From NCBI GenBank assembly GCA_010093995.1, contig ML992501.1:1332566-1396565 (forward strand): DNA of 64,000 nt, written 5' to 3'. Origin of the DNA: Elsinoe ampelina. Taxonomy: Eukaryota. Shown piece after piece: positions 4,387 through 23,504 of the stretch. Position 1 is the first letter of the stretch; each line of letters opens with the position of its first letter. The notes below the pieces were generated by a model. The model saw nothing but the letters and a program-made list of their open reading frames with translations, did not search any database and was not told where the DNA came from. Position numbers and translations under genes: made by a program.

Positions 4387-5811
4387 ATGGCAAGCATTGA
4401 TGCATCTCCCTTGGGAGCTCCCCTCAAATTTGAATTCTCGGGGCGAACGTGAGCCTGGTAGTAACCACGAGAAGTTCTGTCTAATGCTTGATAGCGCCCC
4501 GAATCGATTCCTCAAAGGTGCCATGAGCGAGCGTCTGGCATCCTGGGATCCCAAGGTGCACGAAAATCGAGGCATCCCTTCGCCGGAACTCATCAATCTT
4601 TACCGACGTTGGGGCGAAGCTGAATTTGGCATCATCTTGTCTGGCAATGTGAGCCACTCCCTACCAGTGTACCAAGCCCGTTGGTAGGACCTCTGACATT
4701 GCCTCAGGTCATGGTGGACTACACCCACCTCGAAGCCGCCGGCAACCCCATCATCCCTCTCGACGCCCCATTCTCCGGCCCACGCTTCGAAGCCTTCAAA
4801 GAAATGGCTACTCTCGGCAAAGCACATGGCTCCCTCATGATAGCCCAAGTAGGCAATGCTGGCAGACAAACCGAGTCCAAAGTCGAGCCGAATCCCATCT
4901 CGGCGAGCGACGTCCAACTCATCGCCAAAAACGGCAGGTCCTACGCCAAACCCCGCCCGGCTACGCTTGACGACATTTCCTTCTTGATAAAGTCTTTTGC
5001 TCACGCAGCCGAGTACCTCGAGAAGGCCGGCTGGGATGGCATGCAGCTGCATGGTGCCCACGGGTACCTGATTGCGCAATTCCTCTCCCGCACCACGAAC
5101 AAGCGAACCGACCAGTACGGCGGGGACATCACCAATCGAGCCAGACTCGTCGTCGAGATCGGCGCTGAGATCCGTCGCCACACCAGACCTGATTTCGTCC
5201 TTGGCATCAAGCTCAACAGCGTGGAATTCCAGAACGATGGCTTCACCCCCGAAGAAGCCCGTGAGCTCTGCACGATCCTGCAGGACAGCAAATTCGATTT
5301 CGTGGAACTGTCAGGCGGTACATACGAGAGCTCCGGCTTCGTCCACAAATCCGAATCAACGCGGAAGCGAGAAGCCTTCTTCCTCCAATTCGCCGAGACC
5401 ATCACTCCCGCCCTGACCAAAACAAAGAGCTACATCACCGGCGGCCTGCGCAGCGTACCGGCCATGCTCGCCGCCTTGGACGTCGTAGACGGCGTCGGTC
5501 TGGGCCGTCCCGCCACTCACGAACCGCTTCTACCCAAGGACATCCTGGCCAAGCAGAGCGAGGGTGCGAGGAAGATCCTGGTAGGAGATGATCAGTTCCC
5601 ACTGACCATGGCGGCGTCGGTGGTGCAGATTAGACAAGTGGCGGAGGACAAGGCGCCGCTGGATCTGACGAGGAAGGAGGATTACGAGGCTTTGGTAAAA
5701 GATTTGAAGGCGTGGCAGGAGTATTTGGCGAAGGATACGGCGTTTACGGATAATAGACCGGCGCCGATTGTGAGCTTGCCGGGAAAGCCGTTTAGGGATG
5801 CGAGGTTATGA
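4387..5811 (+). CDS. NADH:flavin oxidoreductase / old yellow enzyme family
   Basis: MASIDASPLG start at 4387, introns about 4449-4494 and 4648-4707. Motifs APNRFLKGAMSERL, GWDGMQLHGAHGYLIAQFLS and RTDQYGG. Confidence 0.9.
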
Positions 5812-5829
5812 GCCGGTGCGGTGGGAATG

Positions 5830-6582
5830 TTAGATCAACGGACGAAGCTCGCTCAAATACGTGAGAGTAGCCTTCACGAGATCAAGTAATGAGGCGCTCT
5901 TGGCCGCCGGATAGCGGGGAGGCCGTTCCACGAGCCTGTCTAAGAACCACTTCATAGCCTCTTCCAGTCCAGTTCCTGTCTTTGCGTTGATGGCCATCAA
6001 GGTCTATGTCAATTTAGCTACATGCATTTGAGCTCGTCTACATCCACTTATGTAGCACTGATCAAGACGATTGTGCTACTCAAGAAGCTTGTGATTTCTT
6101 CCTCGACTTCAGCTATTGACCTGGCGCCCTACGAGCAATCAGCGAGTCTATCCACTTCAATAGCTCGTTTGTGGGCTTGCCTCTTGATCCAATTGAGTGA
6201 CCAATAACAGCAGCGGTCCAGGCTCCGTCTCTTCGACTTGAAGCACTAGTGACTCCAAGAAGTATAATCCATCTTCCCAACGACCCTCATCAGCTTCTGC
6301 ATGTATAGTGAATACAACGCCATCCGCATTCGTCTTGACAAACGCCTGGGCTTTCTTCATCTGAAACACGGGATGTATGACATGAGCGTCTATGACGGAG
6401 AAGGTCAACTTGTTGAGCGTCAAGTATTCCCCACAGAGCGTTTCGGAAGTATACTGGGAAGTGACGGAATAGGGAGAATCCGCCGCCAGGTGTTTAAGGA
6501 TAGAGGATTTGCCGGATTCCTTAAAGCCTGTCAGGAAGATGCGACGAGGATGTTCTGTTGGCAGATGTGCGCTGAGTGGCAT
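5830..6582 (-). pseudogene. Divergent ARF-like small GTPase paralogue 1, probably disrupted
   Basis: P-loop GFKESGKSS, VTQLD at the G4 position, last exon TLMAINAKTGTGLEEAMKWF. It lacks the MG start. Exon 2 is 77 nt (78 in the other copies), the homologous frame contains a TAG, and the intron 2 donor reads ATAAGT instead of GTAAGT. Confidence 0.7.
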
Positions 6583-6832
6583 GATGAAGCTCGATGTGGA
6601 GGGAGAGAGGATGAAGGCTTTGACGTTGTGGGAGGATGTGAAGGTGACGCTGTAGGATAAGGTTGCGGAAGAGGAGGTTGTGATTCTGGAAGATGGCCGC
6701 TGCCTAAGCTCCAGGAAGCTTATACGGATCATGAGCTCGAGACAGCTTCATCAAACGAGAGTCTATTTGCAGCACCGTTTGAAAATGCGAGGTCGTGATT
6801 CGATGACTTGGGAGGGGCGTTGCACAGCATAC

Positions 6833-7545
6833 TCAGACCGCTCGCATGGGCTGGTGATTCAGCTTGTCTGAGAACCAGTCGAAGGCCTCTTCAAGCCCTT
6901 CCCCAGTCTTACCGTTGGCTGGCTTTATGGCCTACAGTGGGTAAGCTTTTAGGCAGACATATGGATATGCTTGACTTACGTAGCATTGCTCAGCTCGACC
7001 TTTCTCCGCGATGAGCTTGTCGATGTCTTGCCTGATCTCCTCAAATGGTGCTGATCTCTGCCATGATTCAGCATGTGTTATTTAGGTCAATGATCGCAGA
7101 CAGGTAGACGTACCTCCTCGTCCAGTCGAGTGATGAGCACTAACAGAACGCTATGCTTGGTCTCTTCCACAGCAAACACGTACTCTGAAAGCTCCCAGAG
7201 TATACTTTCCCAAGCACAACGCCCAGCAGGATTGGCACTGATGGCAAATATGATACCATCGATGTTCTCACGCACGAATTCTTGAACACTTTCAACGTAC
7301 CGCGGTCGGCAGACCTGTATATCGAAGACGCCAATAGTCAACTTGGGGAGCTTAAGCCACTCCCAGACAGGTTTCTCAATGGCGATATCCAGGGTCACCT
7401 TGTATGGGCTTTCCGATGTGATGCGGGCCAGTATGGACGACTTGCCGCAATCATCTCCTCCAAGCATAGTTATGCGGCGTGGTACCTGCGGTTGGAGATG
7501 CTTCCATAGTCGGTCGCGTTTGAAGGAAGACAGGGCAGAGCCCAT
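6833..7545 (-). CDS. Divergent ARF-like small GTPase paralogue 2
   Basis: MGSALSS myristoylation-type start, RITMLGGDDCGKSSIL P-loop, ITRLD. Exons 7545-7114, 7057-6980 and 6931-6833. C-terminus ANGKTGEGLEEAFDWFSDKL matches the ARF G5 region and last helix. Confidence 0.85.
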
Positions 7546-7946
7546 GGTGGTAGATGGATAAATAAGAGGGTTCGATTTGGTAGTTGAGAGGGAAGGGGAC
7601 TGCCTTCCTTGAATGTGATATCATATGTGGCCACTGGCTCAGCTGCTGCCTCGCGCATTGTTTCCCAGGCAGACGCAAATGTTGTTACACATGGTGGCTG
7701 AAACGCCGGCTCAACCACTCTTCGACTTCGGGTGGCTGCGCCGCCAGGGTTGATCGGCTTTGTGTCTCAACCAGCTTACGAAGATTTCGCTCAGCGTCAT
7801 CGGAAGTGCTGCCATTATGAGGTACCTTGATATCGTTTGTTGGAATCTTCCGGGCTGGACAGGTCTTTCAAGGTAATCAGTTTGTTGACGGAAACTGTAC
7901 AGCCGTATCTCAAGTGACTTTCTCCGTCCACTTGTGCATTTGAATG

Positions 7947-8647
7947 CTAGGCCTTCTGATTGAGCTGCTCCGAGAACCACTTGCAAGACTCCGCGAGACC
8001 TGTACCCGTCTTCGCATTGATTGGGAAGATGCTCTGGTAGACAATCAGCGAGATGCCCTTTGAAAGTAATTCCAAGAGCTTACATAGCACTGCTCGCCGC
8101 GACCATGTTTTGCAAGGGTATAGTCGATTCTTACTGCGATGCTCTCAATGGAAGTTGCGCCCTAATTCAAATCAGTACCTTTCGCCGGGGTACTCGAAGA
8201 TGCTTGGGAACATACGTCTCTATCCCATCGGTTGACGAGTACGAGCAGAACACTTTCTGCCGTCTCTTCAACCTCGGCCAGGTAGTGCTGGATGATGTAG
8301 TTGGGATCGTCTGTGAGGAACTTATCAGTGTCGACTGCGTTGAGTACCATGATCATGCCATCTACATTCTCCTTGACAAAGTCCTGAATCTTGCTAATGA
8401 AACCGGGGTGCATTGCCCAGTAGTCTATGGTAGATATTTTCATGTTGCTGAGTTCCAACCACTCTTGGCACATGGCCGTCATTGAAATCTGTTGCTGCAT
8501 CTCGAACGAGCTTCCAGCCGCGAGGAGTCGGAGGATAGACGATTTCCCAGATGCTTCGCTGCCTAGCATAGTAATGCGTCGTGGTGAATCAAGGTGAAAA
8601 TCCCTCGATAAGGACTTCTCTCCCAACAAGGACAACGCTGTACCCAT
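7947..8647 (-). CDS. Divergent ARF-like small GTPase paralogue 3
   Basis: MGTALSL start at 8647, GSEASGKSS, VNRWD. Same two introns and 26-codon middle exon as the other copies. Ends INAKTGTGLAESCKWFSEQLNQKA. Confidence 0.85.
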
Positions 8648-8932
8648 ACCAGCCAGGCAGCGTGAGGTTCTGACACGAGAGATGCCAATGACTGGGAGAT
8701 TGGCTTGCGAACATTTCTCGTCGAGGTAGTCGTTCAGGGTAAAGACCTGGTGCCTATTTGCGGCGCAGCACGAGCTGAAACATGTTTTCATGGTACCCTA
8801 CCAAGCACCCTACCACAGAAATGGGTAGACCGAGTCCATCAAGAATCATTCGCAATTACCAAAAGCCAGCAACACCATTGCACTGATATGGTTGCGACTG
8901 AAGCGACTAAAAGACGAGTGATCATATGATCT

Positions 8933-9643
8933 CTAATACTGGCTCGTCGTCTGCTGATCAAGTTTTGCTGTGAACCAGTCGAAAGCATCTTCAAGACCAT
9001 GGCCCGTTCTGGCATCGACAGGCTTGACAGACTATAAGCCTCAGTAGTGCAGTCTCGAATACGGAATATCACTCACGTGACACTGCTCGGCCCGGTCGTA
9101 CTTGCGTAAGAGGTCATCAATCTCTTGTTCTATTTGAGCGAGGGACCTTGAGCCCTGGTCTGATCAGAATTGAAAATGTTGTCTAGTTGTGGGCCTCACC
9201 TTTCGGTCAGCTCGATCGACGAGTATTAGTAGCACCATGCTCTCCGTTCCTTCTCCTTCTAGTATGTACCACTGAATGTAGCATAACCAGTCCATCCAGA
9301 TCTCTTCGCAAGCGGTGGGATCAAACACCACGATCATTCCATGTGAGTTCTGGCGTACGAAATCCTTGATTCTGACGAAAAGCTTCGAAACCGGGGGTAG
9401 AGACTCGAGGCCTAGAAGTGAAATCTTCGTGTTCGGCAGCTCCAACCATATGTTGCTAAGGAAGGTGATTGGGGATTCCACTGTTAGCTGCGCTGGGCTT
9501 CCATGTTCGATAAGATGCAGGATGGACAGCGTTACAGAAGGTTGGTTGGCAGGCTCCATGCCAGCTAGAATTATCCGACGTGGTTCTTGTGTGTGAAGGT
9601 GCTTCCACAAAGGCTTGCGGATAAATGACGACGCTGAACCCAT
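8933..9643 (-). CDS. Divergent ARF-like paralogue 4 lacking the P-loop GKS
   Basis: MGSASSF start at 9643. RRIILAGMEPANQPSVTLSIL replaces the P-loop; VDRAD at G4. Same 3-exon structure. Ends VDARTGHGLEDAFDWFTAKL. Confidence 0.8.
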
Positions 9644-10026
9644 GGTGGACTGCAATTTCGAGGGATCCCATCGACAAGTCTGAAAGGATTCTGAACATCG
9701 TGGTACGAGGAATAATACTTTGCTCGTAGGCAGCCTTTTCAGTTTCTCCCGCGCGCTCTCTGGCTCGCAAGGGTCTGGAGGCTGAAACGGCTCAACGTGG
9801 TTCGGAGGCTTGGCCTTCATGCGTCGAAAAGTTCACAGCCACATAGTCTGACAGCGATATGGATTGTCCTTCCATGAATGGGTTGGCCACATCATGATGA
9901 TTCTATCCTCCTGCCACACGCAGCAGGTGCATAGAAGCGTCGTGCGTTCTCCGTTCATATTGCCGGCCTATACATGTCGAATAAGAACCCGATGACGGCA
10001 GAAGATGTCCGACATCAATTTATGGG

Positions 10027-10703
10027 CTAGCTGTTGAGCTTCTGGGACAGCCAGTCGAGCGAGGTGTCCAGTCCTGCCCCTGTCTTTGCGTTGATAGCTT
10101 TGATGCACTAGACAATTGTCAGCGTACCTTACCTGTCACATCCCAGGGATGCTTACATGTCGATCCGTACTGCCCTTTCGTTCAGCTAGAAGAGGTTCAA
10201 CTTTTTGCTCGATGCTTGTGAGCGACCTCGCTCTCTGTTGAATCTTAGGAAGTGCTTAGACACGAGGGGTATTGACTGACCTCTTCGTCACATCTATTGA
10301 TAAGAACGAGTAGGGGACAATCTTTCGTCTCTTTCACATCCAGTATGTAATGACGTAAGATGTACATGCTATCATTCCAATCGTCGTCGCTAGCAATGGC
10401 ATCCAGCGAAAGGATGACACCATCGGCGTGGCGCCGCACATAGTCCTGGACCTGTTCCTTGAATCCAGGGTGAATGCTGCCACAATTGAGGATCTTGATA
10501 CTCGTGTTCGGAAGATCTAGCCATTCGGAGCAGAAGTCGGAAGTTGAAGTCTGATACTTCACGTCCGACGAGCTGTCCTTAGCAAGATGCTGCAGGATAG
10601 ATGATTTCCCGGTAGCATTCATGCCTAGCAGTATGAGGGTTCGATGCGGAGTGTTTACTCTTAGGTGAGCCCACAGTGGCTCGCGTGACAGAGCGGAACC
10701 CAT
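10027..10703 (-). CDS. Divergent ARF-like small GTPase paralogue 5
   Basis: MGSALSR start at 10703, LLGMNATGKSSIL, INRCD. Same 3-exon structure. Ends INAKTGAGLDTSLDWLSQKLNS. Confidence 0.85.
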
Positions 10704-11463
10704 TTGATCTGTGGCCTGTATGTATCGGTATTTGGAGCATGCTCCCTCCAATGTAGTCGTACAAATACTTACTTTACGAGACCTGGTGGGTGCTAGGTGC
10801 AGCTTGTTAGATTGGGACTGGAAAGAAAGTCGAAACGTGAAATACAGTATTGCCCAGCGTCAGCCCTGCGCCGTTGGAATGTCGCTTTTTTCATTTCCTC
10901 GGATTGCGTGGCGCTTCTTCTTCTTCTTCTCCTCAGACACAACACCAATGTAATGTGACATCCGAAATTTACAGCTACGCCGCTGATCTCTGGACCGTGC
11001 TAGATGTCTCCAAGGATAGCCGAATCTTGAGACGCTGTGCCGCGAGCTGAAGATGACGATGAAACGCAGCTCATTTGGCCATCCATGGCTCTCCAGCCAA
11101 ACGACTGGAAGCGGCGCAGTTCATGATCTCTTTACCTCAATGCGGCTGCTGGAACGCTCCATCTGCGGCTGATGATACGGACCAAATTCAAGACAGAATG
11201 TGAGCCAGATTCAGATGCCTGCGAAGGATGTTGGTCAACGCCAGGAGCCTGTCCTTCATCTCAGCGCCTTCGGACTGCACACAGTACTGTGGGTAGTCGG
11301 GGTACGTTACGAGTCTGCATATAATCAGACTCGTCTTATAGCTCCGTCATGCGCAGAGTGTTTGTTCTTACAGACTTCTTGTGCTCATCATAACCATATA
11401 TCAAGATCGATACCACTCCCCTATAGTTTTACTGGCCATACTAAGCAGGCCCCTTCTCCGAGC

Positions 11464-22116: not shown

Positions 22117-23063
22117 TCATAGCTGATGCCCACACTTCGATAGAAGCTCTGGAAGCCTATTGAACCATTCCGCCTCTCTCGTTTGACCAACATCGCTGTC
22201 CTCCCCCTCGGATCCCTCGTCTTCCTCACTCGCACCACCATCCGCCTCGCCCTCTCCCCCGCCACCCTCCAGCTCCTCCGGCAAAGGCTTCACCCTCCTC
22301 AACCTCCCCCCACAATGCCCACAAACCCTCCTCTCCTCAACATCAATCCTCTTCTTCTGCCTCCCCACCTCCACCCCACACCCACCATACCACCTCCACT
22401 CCCCCTCCCCATCCCTCACCCACTCCAACTCCCCCTCCGTCCCCGCACAAGCCCACACATATTTCCACTCCAACTCATAATCATGCCTCTTCGTGACCCT
22501 CACCCCCATCTCCCCAAACACCGCCTCACACCTCCTCCCCCACGCCTCGAACTCCCCTCCATGCTTGCCCCGCGGCACCTGGTCCACCACTCCCACGGCA
22601 ACATGGCAGAACTCACGCGCGAGGGTACTGCGCAGCCTCTCCTCATCCGTGAGGATCTTGGAGGATAGCTCGATGGTCGCGGCGTAAGCGGGGACGGTCG
22701 GGGTCGAGGTCTCGGGTGAAAAGGACGGGTGGTGGCGCGGCCGGCGGTGACGGTGAAGTGCGGGTTCCAGATTAGGTGGACGCCGCCGGTGGGAGCAGTG
22801 CGCTGTGCGATGAGGGAGGAGGTGAGGGTTTGGTCGAGTTGGGTGAGGAAGGTGTGGGCGAGGGTGTCGCGGGTTTCGGTGAAGGGGGCGTCGTGGGGAC
22901 CGGGGTCGTCTTGGTTGGGATCGTCTTGTCTGGGGACGTCCTGAGTGGGTTTTGAGATGTCTGGGGTTGGGGTCGGACCGGGATGGCGAACATGCGGGCG
23001 CTGCAGAGGAGGTAAGCCGTACGGTGCGCGTATCATATCTTGTTCTGTGGCGAAAGGAGACAT
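22117..23063 (-). pseudogene. SprT-like (GCNA/ACRC-type) metalloprotease paralogue A, frameshifted
   Basis: The N-half (GGVHLIWNPHFTVTAGRA) is in ORF 22500..23063. The C-half (IELSSKILTDEERLRSTLAREFCH, HGGEF, CGHCGG) is in another frame, with no splice signals at about 22700-22735. HExxH is changed to REFCH. Confidence 0.7.
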
Positions 23064-23504
23064 GGTTCGCGAGGCTGGTCTCGGGCGTTGGCTGGAGCGA
23101 ATGATGTGGGTTCTGAGCAGCTGGGGAAGAAGGTTGGAGGCTGAGTAGTGAATGTAGAGTGAAGGGTGAATCGCCGCTGAAGGTCGTTATATCCTGTCCT
23201 CCAGAACTGTATCGTGGCTGGGCTCGGGCAGTGGGCACTCCTTATCAGGGCTAAAGCTCAGTGTGAATTTGAAGGATTTGAAAGTGAATTAACATGAAAT
23301 GATACTGCTGTAATGTCCGTATGTAGATATTCATATGTTTGCATGTGATCATCCACCACGCAAGTGAAGTATCTTGTGTATCTGCGTCTCGTCTGTCGTA
23401 TTGATCGACAGGGATGAGAAGTACACAACAGTCTGATATCCTTAGCAAGTCGGTAACGATCCCAGCCATCACCTGCCATTCCTTCACAGCAGCACACTCC
23501 TTGT

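Follow-up and report, generated by a model that had tools for sequence, protein, structure and literature searches.

An expressed tandem array of strongly diverged ARF-family genes in Elsinoe ampelina, a probable pseudoGTPase family restricted to the Elsinoaceae

A stretch of 64,000 nucleotides from Elsinoe ampelina (contig ML992501.1, positions 1,332,566 to 1,396,565; hereafter the window, whose own numbering is used throughout) carries at 5830..10703 five homologous genes on the minus strand, related to the ADP-ribosylation factor (ARF) family of small GTPases and transcribed in the order E, D, C, B, A. From E to A, the start codons occupy positions 10703, 9643, 8647, 7545, and 6582, which sets them 1060, 996, 1102, and 963 bases apart, so that the five same-strand genes at about 1-kb intervals described in an earlier note on this DNA, which was made from the letters alone, were all found. 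A six-frame scan of the whole 64-kb window with a profile of the family (194 positions) recovered exactly these five copies and no further one. Genes B to E have three exons each, and both intron positions are common to the four: intron 1 (45–56 nt) is in phase 0, two codons past the Asp of the G4 motif, exon 2 has 78 nt (26 codons) and ends in EQCY, EQCY, EQCH, or TDRH, and intron 2 has 45–50 nt. The identical intron positions that the note had seen in all five genes are confirmed, although in A they are marked by a GC donor, a 77-nt relic of exon 2, and an AT donor.

Gene E (10027..10703, minus strand) consists of exons 10703–10281, 10234–10157, and 10107–10027 and encodes a protein of 193 amino acids (aa) with an MGSALS start, in which the motifs G1, G3, and G4 read GMNATGKS, LNCGS, and NRCD; the model is letter-identical to the NCBI E. 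ampelina protein P0001 (193 aa). Gene D (8933..9643, minus strand; exons 9643–9200, 9154–9077, and 9031–8933) encodes 206 aa counted from MGSASS, has lost the P-loop, and reads LGLES at G3 and DRAD at G4. Gene C (7947..8647, minus strand; exons 8647–8216, 8161–8084, and 8033–7947) encodes 198 aa from MGTALS, with GSEASGKS at G1, IDYWA at G3, and NRWD at G4. Gene B (6833..7545, minus strand; exons 7545–7114, 7057–6980, and 6931–6833) encodes 202 aa from an MGSALS start, with GGDDCGKS, FDIQV, and TRLD at the same motifs, and its model is letter-identical to the stored protein P0002 (202 aa). The stored model P0005 corresponds to gene D lengthened at the N-terminus by 59 residues, its start being placed at an in-frame ATG further upstream (9820), P0006 to gene C begun at an internal Met, and P0003 to copy A read through intron 1; the present models thus correct the stored ones for three of the five copies (C, D, and A). 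Gene C also has an upstream in-frame ATG, at 8791, and this codon and that of D lie inside the open frames 8162–8797 and 9164–9832 of the minus strand, respectively; if they were used, the Gly would not be N-terminal.

Copy A (5830..6582, minus strand) is a relic in decay and not one of five intact genes, as it had been counted before. Its exon 1 (6582–6181; G1 reading GFKESGKS) lacks an MG start and is followed by an intron 1 (6180–6129) with a GC donor, a 77-nt equivalent of exon 2 (6128–6052) with a 1-nt deletion causing a frameshift and with an in-frame TAG, and then an AT donor before exon 3 (6003–5830). Exons 1 and 3 are still open, in the same frame and 177 nt apart, and are those recovered by the family-profile scan, which did not recover exon 2. 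The nearest orthologue of copy A is the E. batatas protein P0004, with 80% identity over 136 aa. RNA-derived contigs cover exon 1 (6176–6482 in run X2 and 6194–6571 in run X3), and no splice joint for this copy is listed in the contigs of the four runs described below. Contigs over exon 3 may equally belong to the 3' end of the flavin-oxidoreductase gene that converges on copy A, the contigs of which end at 5941–6012, in antisense overlap with this exon.

The evidence for expression came from contigs of four public sequencing runs of two studies, placed on positions 5700–10900. The runs are not recorded as RNA, and their contigs give no expression level, depth, strand, or transcript ends; the contigs are, however, joined exactly at the predicted introns and therefore stem from spliced RNA. 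Seven of the eight coding introns of B to E are skipped exactly, with GT..AG borders on the minus strand. The joints of both introns of gene E were present in all four runs, those of the remaining genes in one or two of them (B intron 1 in X2 and X6, B intron 2 in X6, C intron 2 in X2, D intron 1 in X6, D intron 2 in X3 and X6), and no joint is listed in the four runs for C intron 1. Genes B to E are thus spliced into RNA. Gene E has in addition an intron in its 5' untranslated region (UTR), at 10716..10772 on the minus strand (57 nt, GT..AG; joint 10714/10772, cut +1), seen in one X6 contig only. Two single contigs run across gene borders, one of X3 (record 11, 8275–9156) from the spliced 3' exons of D into exon 1 of C and one of X6 (record 28, 9350–10107) from the last exon of E into exon 1 of D. 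Transcription therefore extends through the intergenic DNA, whether because the UTRs overlap or by read-through. Over the covered parts of 5.2 kb, just two differences between the window and the contigs were found in the four runs and two studies, a small sampling of isolates: 6396 C>T, in X2 and X3, which changes Val63 to Ile in copy A, and 9850 G>C, in all four runs, upstream of D.

The nucleotide-binding motifs have been eroded to different extents in the five copies. G1 (GxxxxGKS) is kept in A, B, C, and E, whereas the P-loop of D has been lost, G-M-E-P-A-N-Q-P with a 4-residue insertion standing in its place. No equivalent of the switch-I Thr of G2 (PTIGFN) exists in any of the five, in agreement with the note, where the PTIG motif had been called unrecognisable. 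Of the G3 motif, which is WDxGGQ in ARFs, none of the five has retained the Gly that senses the gamma-phosphate or the catalytic Gln, and the Asp is kept in A, B, and C only. The Asp of G4 is kept throughout, with Arg or Gln in place of the Lys and N, T, or D as first residue. The strings given earlier for G3 (IDAHV, FDIQV, IDYWA, LGLES, LNCGS) and G4 (TQLD, TRLD, NRWD, DRAD, NRCD) agree with our alignment. G5 reads NAK, NGK, or DAR, with Ala in A, C, and E and Gly in B, and the C-terminal helix motif TGxGLxxxxxW is well preserved in every copy, as is the longer form (N/D)(A/G)(K/R)TGxGLxxxxxW previously reported for the five. Judged on their sequences, all five proteins are pseudoGTPases in the sense that at least one motif for nucleotide binding or hydrolysis has been lost, namely G2 and G3 in all of them and G1 in D. 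Accordingly, the pseudo-GTPase proposal held in 5/5 copies as regards the missing Thr at G2 and the missing Gly and catalytic Gln at G3, and the loss of the P-loop in D, which had been missed, is to be added to it. Among the 14 family members that cover the P-loop region, six have it intact, one keeps the Lys and Ser without the first Gly, and seven have lost it; like D, half of the family members from other species of Elsinoe are without the P-loop Lys. With seven of 14 members lacking the P-loop, much of the family would do its work without a nucleotide pocket.

The start Met-Gly-x3-Ser fits the consensus for N-myristoylation. The MGxxxS starts that the note had attributed to four copies were found in B, C, D, and E (MGSALS, MGTALS, MGSASS, and MGSALS) and not in A, a myristoylation-type N-terminus by sequence, and B to E are on this ground putatively N-myristoylated. 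A comparable N-terminal Met-Gly...Ser signal occurs in about half of the family.

Despite this erosion of motifs, profile scores and predicted folds place the proteins in the ARF family. When exon 1 alone was compared with the Pfam Arf model (cut-off 22.3 bits), E (31.7) and C (25.8) scored above the threshold and B (20.9) and A (17.2) below it, and exon 1 of D gave no Pfam match; for the full-length proteins P0001 (E) and P0002 (B), PF00025 is a precomputed assignment. Searched against solved structures, the family profile matched 89 distinct PDB sequences at E<=0.001, and all 60 of those listed are Arf, Arl, or asgard Arf proteins. Its scores were spread over Arf1 (52.1 bits, the best), Arl1 (47), Arl3 (46.5), Arf6 (34.6), and Arl2 (33), and E alone gave similarly scattered values, with ARL15 at 32.7, Arf1 at 31.7, Arl1 at 29.7, Rap1 at 26.4, and Sar1 at 23.1 bits. 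The AlphaFold2 model of B, made from a 125-row alignment, reached a predicted local distance difference test score (pLDDT) of 92.4 and a predicted template modelling score (pTM) of 0.89; in that of D, the G domain had pLDDT values of 80–97 and the annotated N-terminal extension 40–71. A Foldseek search with the model of B listed Arf and Arl structures exclusively, with target-normalised template modelling scores (TMt) of 0.72–0.83, the top match being Arf1 with a GDP analogue (E 1.5e-13, TMt 0.80). With D, the structures listed were also Arf and Arl proteins (TMt 0.67–0.83), save one low-ranked row (3l2o, rank 49), and the matches of both models were mostly full-length, GDP-bound forms. In the ESM Atlas, the Arf family was shared by the ten best feature hits (10/10). 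The ARF-like origin suggested earlier is therefore supported alike by the Pfam Arf and profile scores and by the AlphaFold2 and Foldseek results on B and D. No affinity to any single ARF or ARL subfamily is discernible in the sequences, and with the bits spread over five subfamilies and a lineage-restricted distribution, the proteins do not appear as orthologues of a known conserved ARL subfamily, orthology of that kind, with normal GTPase activity, being what the note had named as a refutation.

The duplications that gave rise to the array are old. Protein identity among the paralogues is 31–43%, which bears out the strong divergence noticed before, and in the ten paralogue pairs the proportion of synonymous differences (pS) is saturated at 0.71–0.76 against 0.38–0.47 for nonsynonymous ones (pN). 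At the DNA level, just two short stretches match between the five units, both in exon 3 (48 and 32 nt), and their intergenic and intron DNA is unalignable. Saturated pS together with so few DNA matches implies old duplications and no recent gene conversion. The frames of B to E have nevertheless stayed open (193–206 codons) and spliceable, and pN is about half of pS, so these four genes are under overall purifying constraint and neutral decay is ruled out for them. A correction to the ratio of nonsynonymous to synonymous rates (dN/dS) is undefined in five of the ten pairs and yields an upper bound of about 0.15–0.26 only, with site-wise positive selection beyond its reach. The diversifying selection proposed in the note finds no support in these saturated paralogue comparisons. 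Mean pairwise identity is 0.31 in the family and likewise 0.31 in 92 mixed ARF-family representatives, and the sole part clearly less conserved in the family is the P-loop region (0.30 vs. 0.52 in the mixed set). Switch I (0.18) and switch II (0.23) are among the least conserved parts of the family, although the comparison set is a mixture of subfamilies in which these regions vary as well, so that the values are no clean test of hypervariable switch surfaces. A birth-and-death family, as postulated in the note, fits with the decay of copy A and with the species-specific subclades; the opposite outcome that it had envisaged, of copies all untranscribed and decaying neutrally, is excluded for B to E by the spliced contigs and by a pN of about half of the saturated pS.

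Of the 1.84 billion representatives covered by an exhaustive HMMER search, 878 matched at E<=0.001, but only 31 of these reached E<=1e-10 and only 8 reached E<=1e-30, and every named hit above 100 bits from outside the window belonged to E. batatas, E. fawcettii, E. australis, or Sphaceloma murrayae. Eight named relatives from outside the window were examined above 78 bits, all of Elsinoe or Sphaceloma; hits that score higher without belonging to the family, such as P0013, are outside that count. As far as sequence searches reach, close relatives are restricted to Elsinoe and Sphaceloma (Elsinoaceae). Word-based searches were narrower in yield: exon 1 of E retrieved only E's own protein (one hit, 13 candidates), the five-paralogue profile retrieved four proteins among 868 candidates, and neither led to any relative of B to E outside E. 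ampelina, A alone having a close orthologue; the 17-row family alignment, scored on the 8000 candidates sharing most words, gave three hits, one of them new (P0156). The gene models of E. fawcettii bear the consecutive locus tags 011480 and 011490, three members of E. australis lie on one 584-kb contig, and one further contig of 114.7 kb carries another three, which suggests that the family is clustered in relatives too. The stored models P0003, P0004, P0012, P0018, P0022, P0156, P0020, P0043, P0051, and P0054 end soon after G4, apparently reading into intron 1, and truncated annotation of this kind is hence no evidence of pseudogenes.

A quick maximum-likelihood tree of 122 rows, midpoint-rooted and without labelled ARF, ARL, or SAR reference rows, was built leaving out P0012, P0021, P0114, P0152–P0155, and proteins shorter than 150 or longer than 270 aa, the length filter being waived for 18 labelled rows (16 of Elsinoaceae, P0036, and P0029). 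All 16 Elsinoaceae rows fell on one side of a branch with a Shimodaira–Hasegawa-like approximate likelihood ratio test (SH-aLRT) support of 89, and none of 500 label shuffles gave a value as low. These rows are nested in a 26-row group (SH-aLRT 92) together with sporadic fungal proteins, apart from the 96 other rows, so that the Elsinoaceae family appears to be the most derived offshoot of an ARF-like lineage that is older and patchily distributed among fungi. This wider fungal group comprises P0036 from the lichen-forming Arthoniomycete Coniocarpon cinnabarinum, P0078 from the basidiomycete Coniophora puteana, and P0020, P0024, P0026, P0030, P0043, P0051, P0054, and P0134. Its members share with the array an N-terminal pattern P-W-x-x-L...R-P-x-R, extra residues before switch I, and a pattern (D/N)xE-GA-x-S-x-E-E-I-E after G4; several of their models end in E-V at the spot of intron 1, probably by reading through a GT donor, which would place the intron at the same position. 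Unlike the array, they keep a PTIGF-like G2 and partly a DxGG-like G3, and their scores with the family profile (57–69 bits) are no better than those of canonical ARFs.

Compared with canonical Arf1, Arl1, and Arl3 (6pta, 3lrp, 1moz, 5di3, 8sdw, and other structures), the array proteins are alike in fold (TMt 0.72–0.83 for B) and of similar length. They too possess the TGxGLxxxxxW helix motif and an N-terminal extension with a Gly2 start of the myristoylation type, and four of the five have G1. They differ in scoring 33–52 bits only, evenly across subfamilies, in lacking PTIGFN and WDxGGQ, and in having (N/T/D)(R/Q)xD in place of NKxD; moreover, the canonical members are pan-eukaryotic and the array family is restricted to the Elsinoaceae. 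The closest published analogue, in kind only, is ArlEM of the Eumicrosporea, described as an expressed, putative class-i pseudoGTPase of the ARF family with predicted lipidation and an unidentified origin (BMC Biol 2026, PMC13393502). According to that description, ArlEM is likewise lineage-specific, expressed, and extremely diverged, with a source paralogue that cannot be identified, G motifs including the P-loop disrupted in most members, and N-myristoylation predicted in some species. It differs in belonging to the Microsporidia, where it appears as a mostly single-copy gene ubiquitous in its clade, in contrast to the five-gene tandem array of a Dothideomycete. The Elsinoe array is further set apart by P-loop-intact beside P-loop-dead paralogues, by a fold that is well preserved in the models, with no helices deleted, and by one copy in decay. 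The likeness was drawn from this description rather than from a comparison of sequences, and orthology is unlikely given the different phylum.

Other lineage-specific members of the family have been set aside in surveys. In the sections of Vargova et al. 2021 considered here, unclassified genes are grouped as "ArlX" and extremely divergent sequences with disrupted motifs are excluded (PMC8358228); ArlX genes are described there as ARF paralogues that are confined to particular taxa, have diverged strongly, and are of uncertain ancestry, as is the case in the array, but those sections mention no Elsinoe sequences, and the Elsinoe family is distinguished by its tandem arrangement, its expression, and a defined intron pattern. 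A 2025 review holds that many atypical ARLs are better regarded as pseudoGTPases, reports that the atypical ARL15 was purified without nucleotide and is yet nucleotide-responsive, and summarises the pseudoGTPase classes of Stiegler and Boggon 2020 (PMC12722892). Among the papers searched, none joins Elsinoe with an ADP-ribosylation factor, although supplementary tables might list related fungal sequences, and a search on tandem fungal Arf-like genes in connection with NOD-like receptors (NLRs) and pseudoenzymes returned nothing relevant. Lineage-specific pseudoGTPases derived from ARFs are only now gaining recognition, with ArlEM and the atypical human ARLs, and the novelty of the present locus within this known kind lies in a tandem array of mixed state with a well-preserved fold. 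Pocket-intact, pocket-dead, and decaying copies of one fold form a natural series within 5 kb of a culturable fungus, a convenient system for asking what the role of the ARF fold is once it is no longer a switch. So far there is no evidence for a bearing on pathogenicity.

The reading that we favour, and consider probable, is that of an expressed, Elsinoaceae-restricted family of ARF-fold pseudoGTPases in which B, C, and E may hold nucleotide, D holds none, and A is a relic. The array descends from an ARF-family small GTPase by old tandem duplication, and its proteins would act as non-cycling binding modules, probably tethered to membranes, with the diverged former switch surfaces setting partner specificity. 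B, C, and E would be class ii pseudoGTPases, perhaps with the nucleotide as a structural cofactor but with no canonical sensing or hydrolysis, and D would be of class i. Myristoylation, membrane association, and a scaffold or adaptor role are what we infer from the N-termini and from ARF biology, and hydrolysis is presumably absent. Several observations weigh against this reading. Exon 1 of B stays under the Pfam Arf cut-off and D is without a Pfam hit, the sequence of D alone peaking at 22.8 bits against any solved structure; 108 of the 125 rows in the modelling alignments are canonical ARF-family sequences, so that the ARF-like model is partly built in; and the family branch (89) is not starred in a quick, midpoint-rooted tree lacking labelled references. 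In addition, the case for myristoylation is the N-terminal motif by itself, and RNA contigs cover the regions of the upstream ATGs of C and D, so that both genes may start there. Finally, the G1 and the G4 Asp kept in B, C, and E are compatible with nucleotide binding and with hydrolysis that is non-canonical or assisted by a GTPase-activating protein. The last point leads to an alternative that we judge unlikely, although it deserves attention, in which B, C, and E function as GTP switches, though atypical ones, with hydrolysis or change of state provided in trans by a GTPase-activating protein or a partner, or by non-canonical residues, as has been suggested for certain atypical ARLs, and only D and A are dead. 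The GxxxxGKS motif, the G4 Asp, and the G5 Ala of A, C, and E (B having G1 and the G4 Asp, but a Gly at G5) speak for it, as does the fact that ARL15, at 32.7 bits, is the best solved-structure match of E; yet the Gly and Gln of switch II are gone from all five copies and the G3 Asp also from D and E, there is no conserved switch-I Thr, and the P-loop has been lost in seven of 14 family members, so that whatever function is common to the family cannot hinge on nucleotide.

An immune function, with the array serving in non-self recognition as baits, decoys, or allorecognition determinants, possibly together with the NLR-type gene at 15216–19515 (minus strand), seems to us quite improbable, and the decoy, sensor, or allorecognition roles put forward in the note are not supported by direct evidence. 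The family is tandem, lineage-restricted, and strongly diverged with copy loss, conservation is among the lowest in its former effector surfaces (switch I 0.18, switch II 0.23), and the NLR-like gene is separated from gene E by about 4.5 kb containing one long open reading frame (ORF). This adjacency was, however, spotted post hoc and in this window alone, two differences in 5.2 kb over two studies do not resemble allorecognition-like polymorphism (few isolates having been sampled), the overall constraint is purifying, and no HET, HeLo, or amyloid motif and no signal peptide-like start occur in any of the proteins. Its more specific form, that of a diversifying set of myristoylated, ARF-GDP-like baits or decoys guarded by or acting with the neighbouring PNP_UDP-NB-ARC-TPR NLR, the P-loop-dead and P-loop-intact copies representing different bait states, we hold to be highly improbable; if true, a dead small GTPase would here have been turned into a fungal module for guard/decoy function or allorecognition. 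Scarcely credible is the proposal that the whole array consists of functionless transcribed pseudogenes: copy A has four lesions (GC donor, 1-nt deletion, in-frame TAG, and AT donor), D is without a P-loop, and several family members have truncated models in public records, but B to E have their open frames and GT..AG introns in place despite saturated synonymous sites and unalignable intergenic and intron DNA, pN is about half of pS, seven of eight introns are correctly spliced, and the fold is predicted with high confidence. A further candidate, a sponge of nucleotide-free ARF mimics sequestering Sec7 exchange factors, was set aside, as the surfaces for contact with exchange factors are the least conserved.

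Regarding the surroundings of the array, the GC content is 0.49–0.51 within it against 0.52–0.64 in the flanks, so that it does not form an AT-rich isochore, and no biosynthetic cluster is obvious among the neighbours in the window. On the side of gene A, an Old-Yellow-Enzyme-type NADH:flavin oxidoreductase (Pfam Oxidored_FMN) is encoded at 4624–5811 on the plus strand, convergent with A, and a sugar transporter of the major facilitator superfamily (sugar/MFS) at 486–2003 on the minus strand. Beyond gene E, an open frame of 1097 codons (11176–14469, plus strand), with a high content of Ser, Thr, and Ala and with runs of Ser-Ala repeats, matched no Pfam family at E<=0.001, and its product may be a wall or surface protein. 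The NLR-type gene at 15216–19515 (minus strand) comprises two adjoining ORFs with an N-terminal, phosphorylase-like PNP_UDP_1 domain, a P-loop of AAA_16/NB-ARC type, and many TPR repeats, and it is followed by a class I/II aminotransferase gene (20018–21781, plus strand) and by a gene for a SprT-like protein (22120–23241, minus strand).

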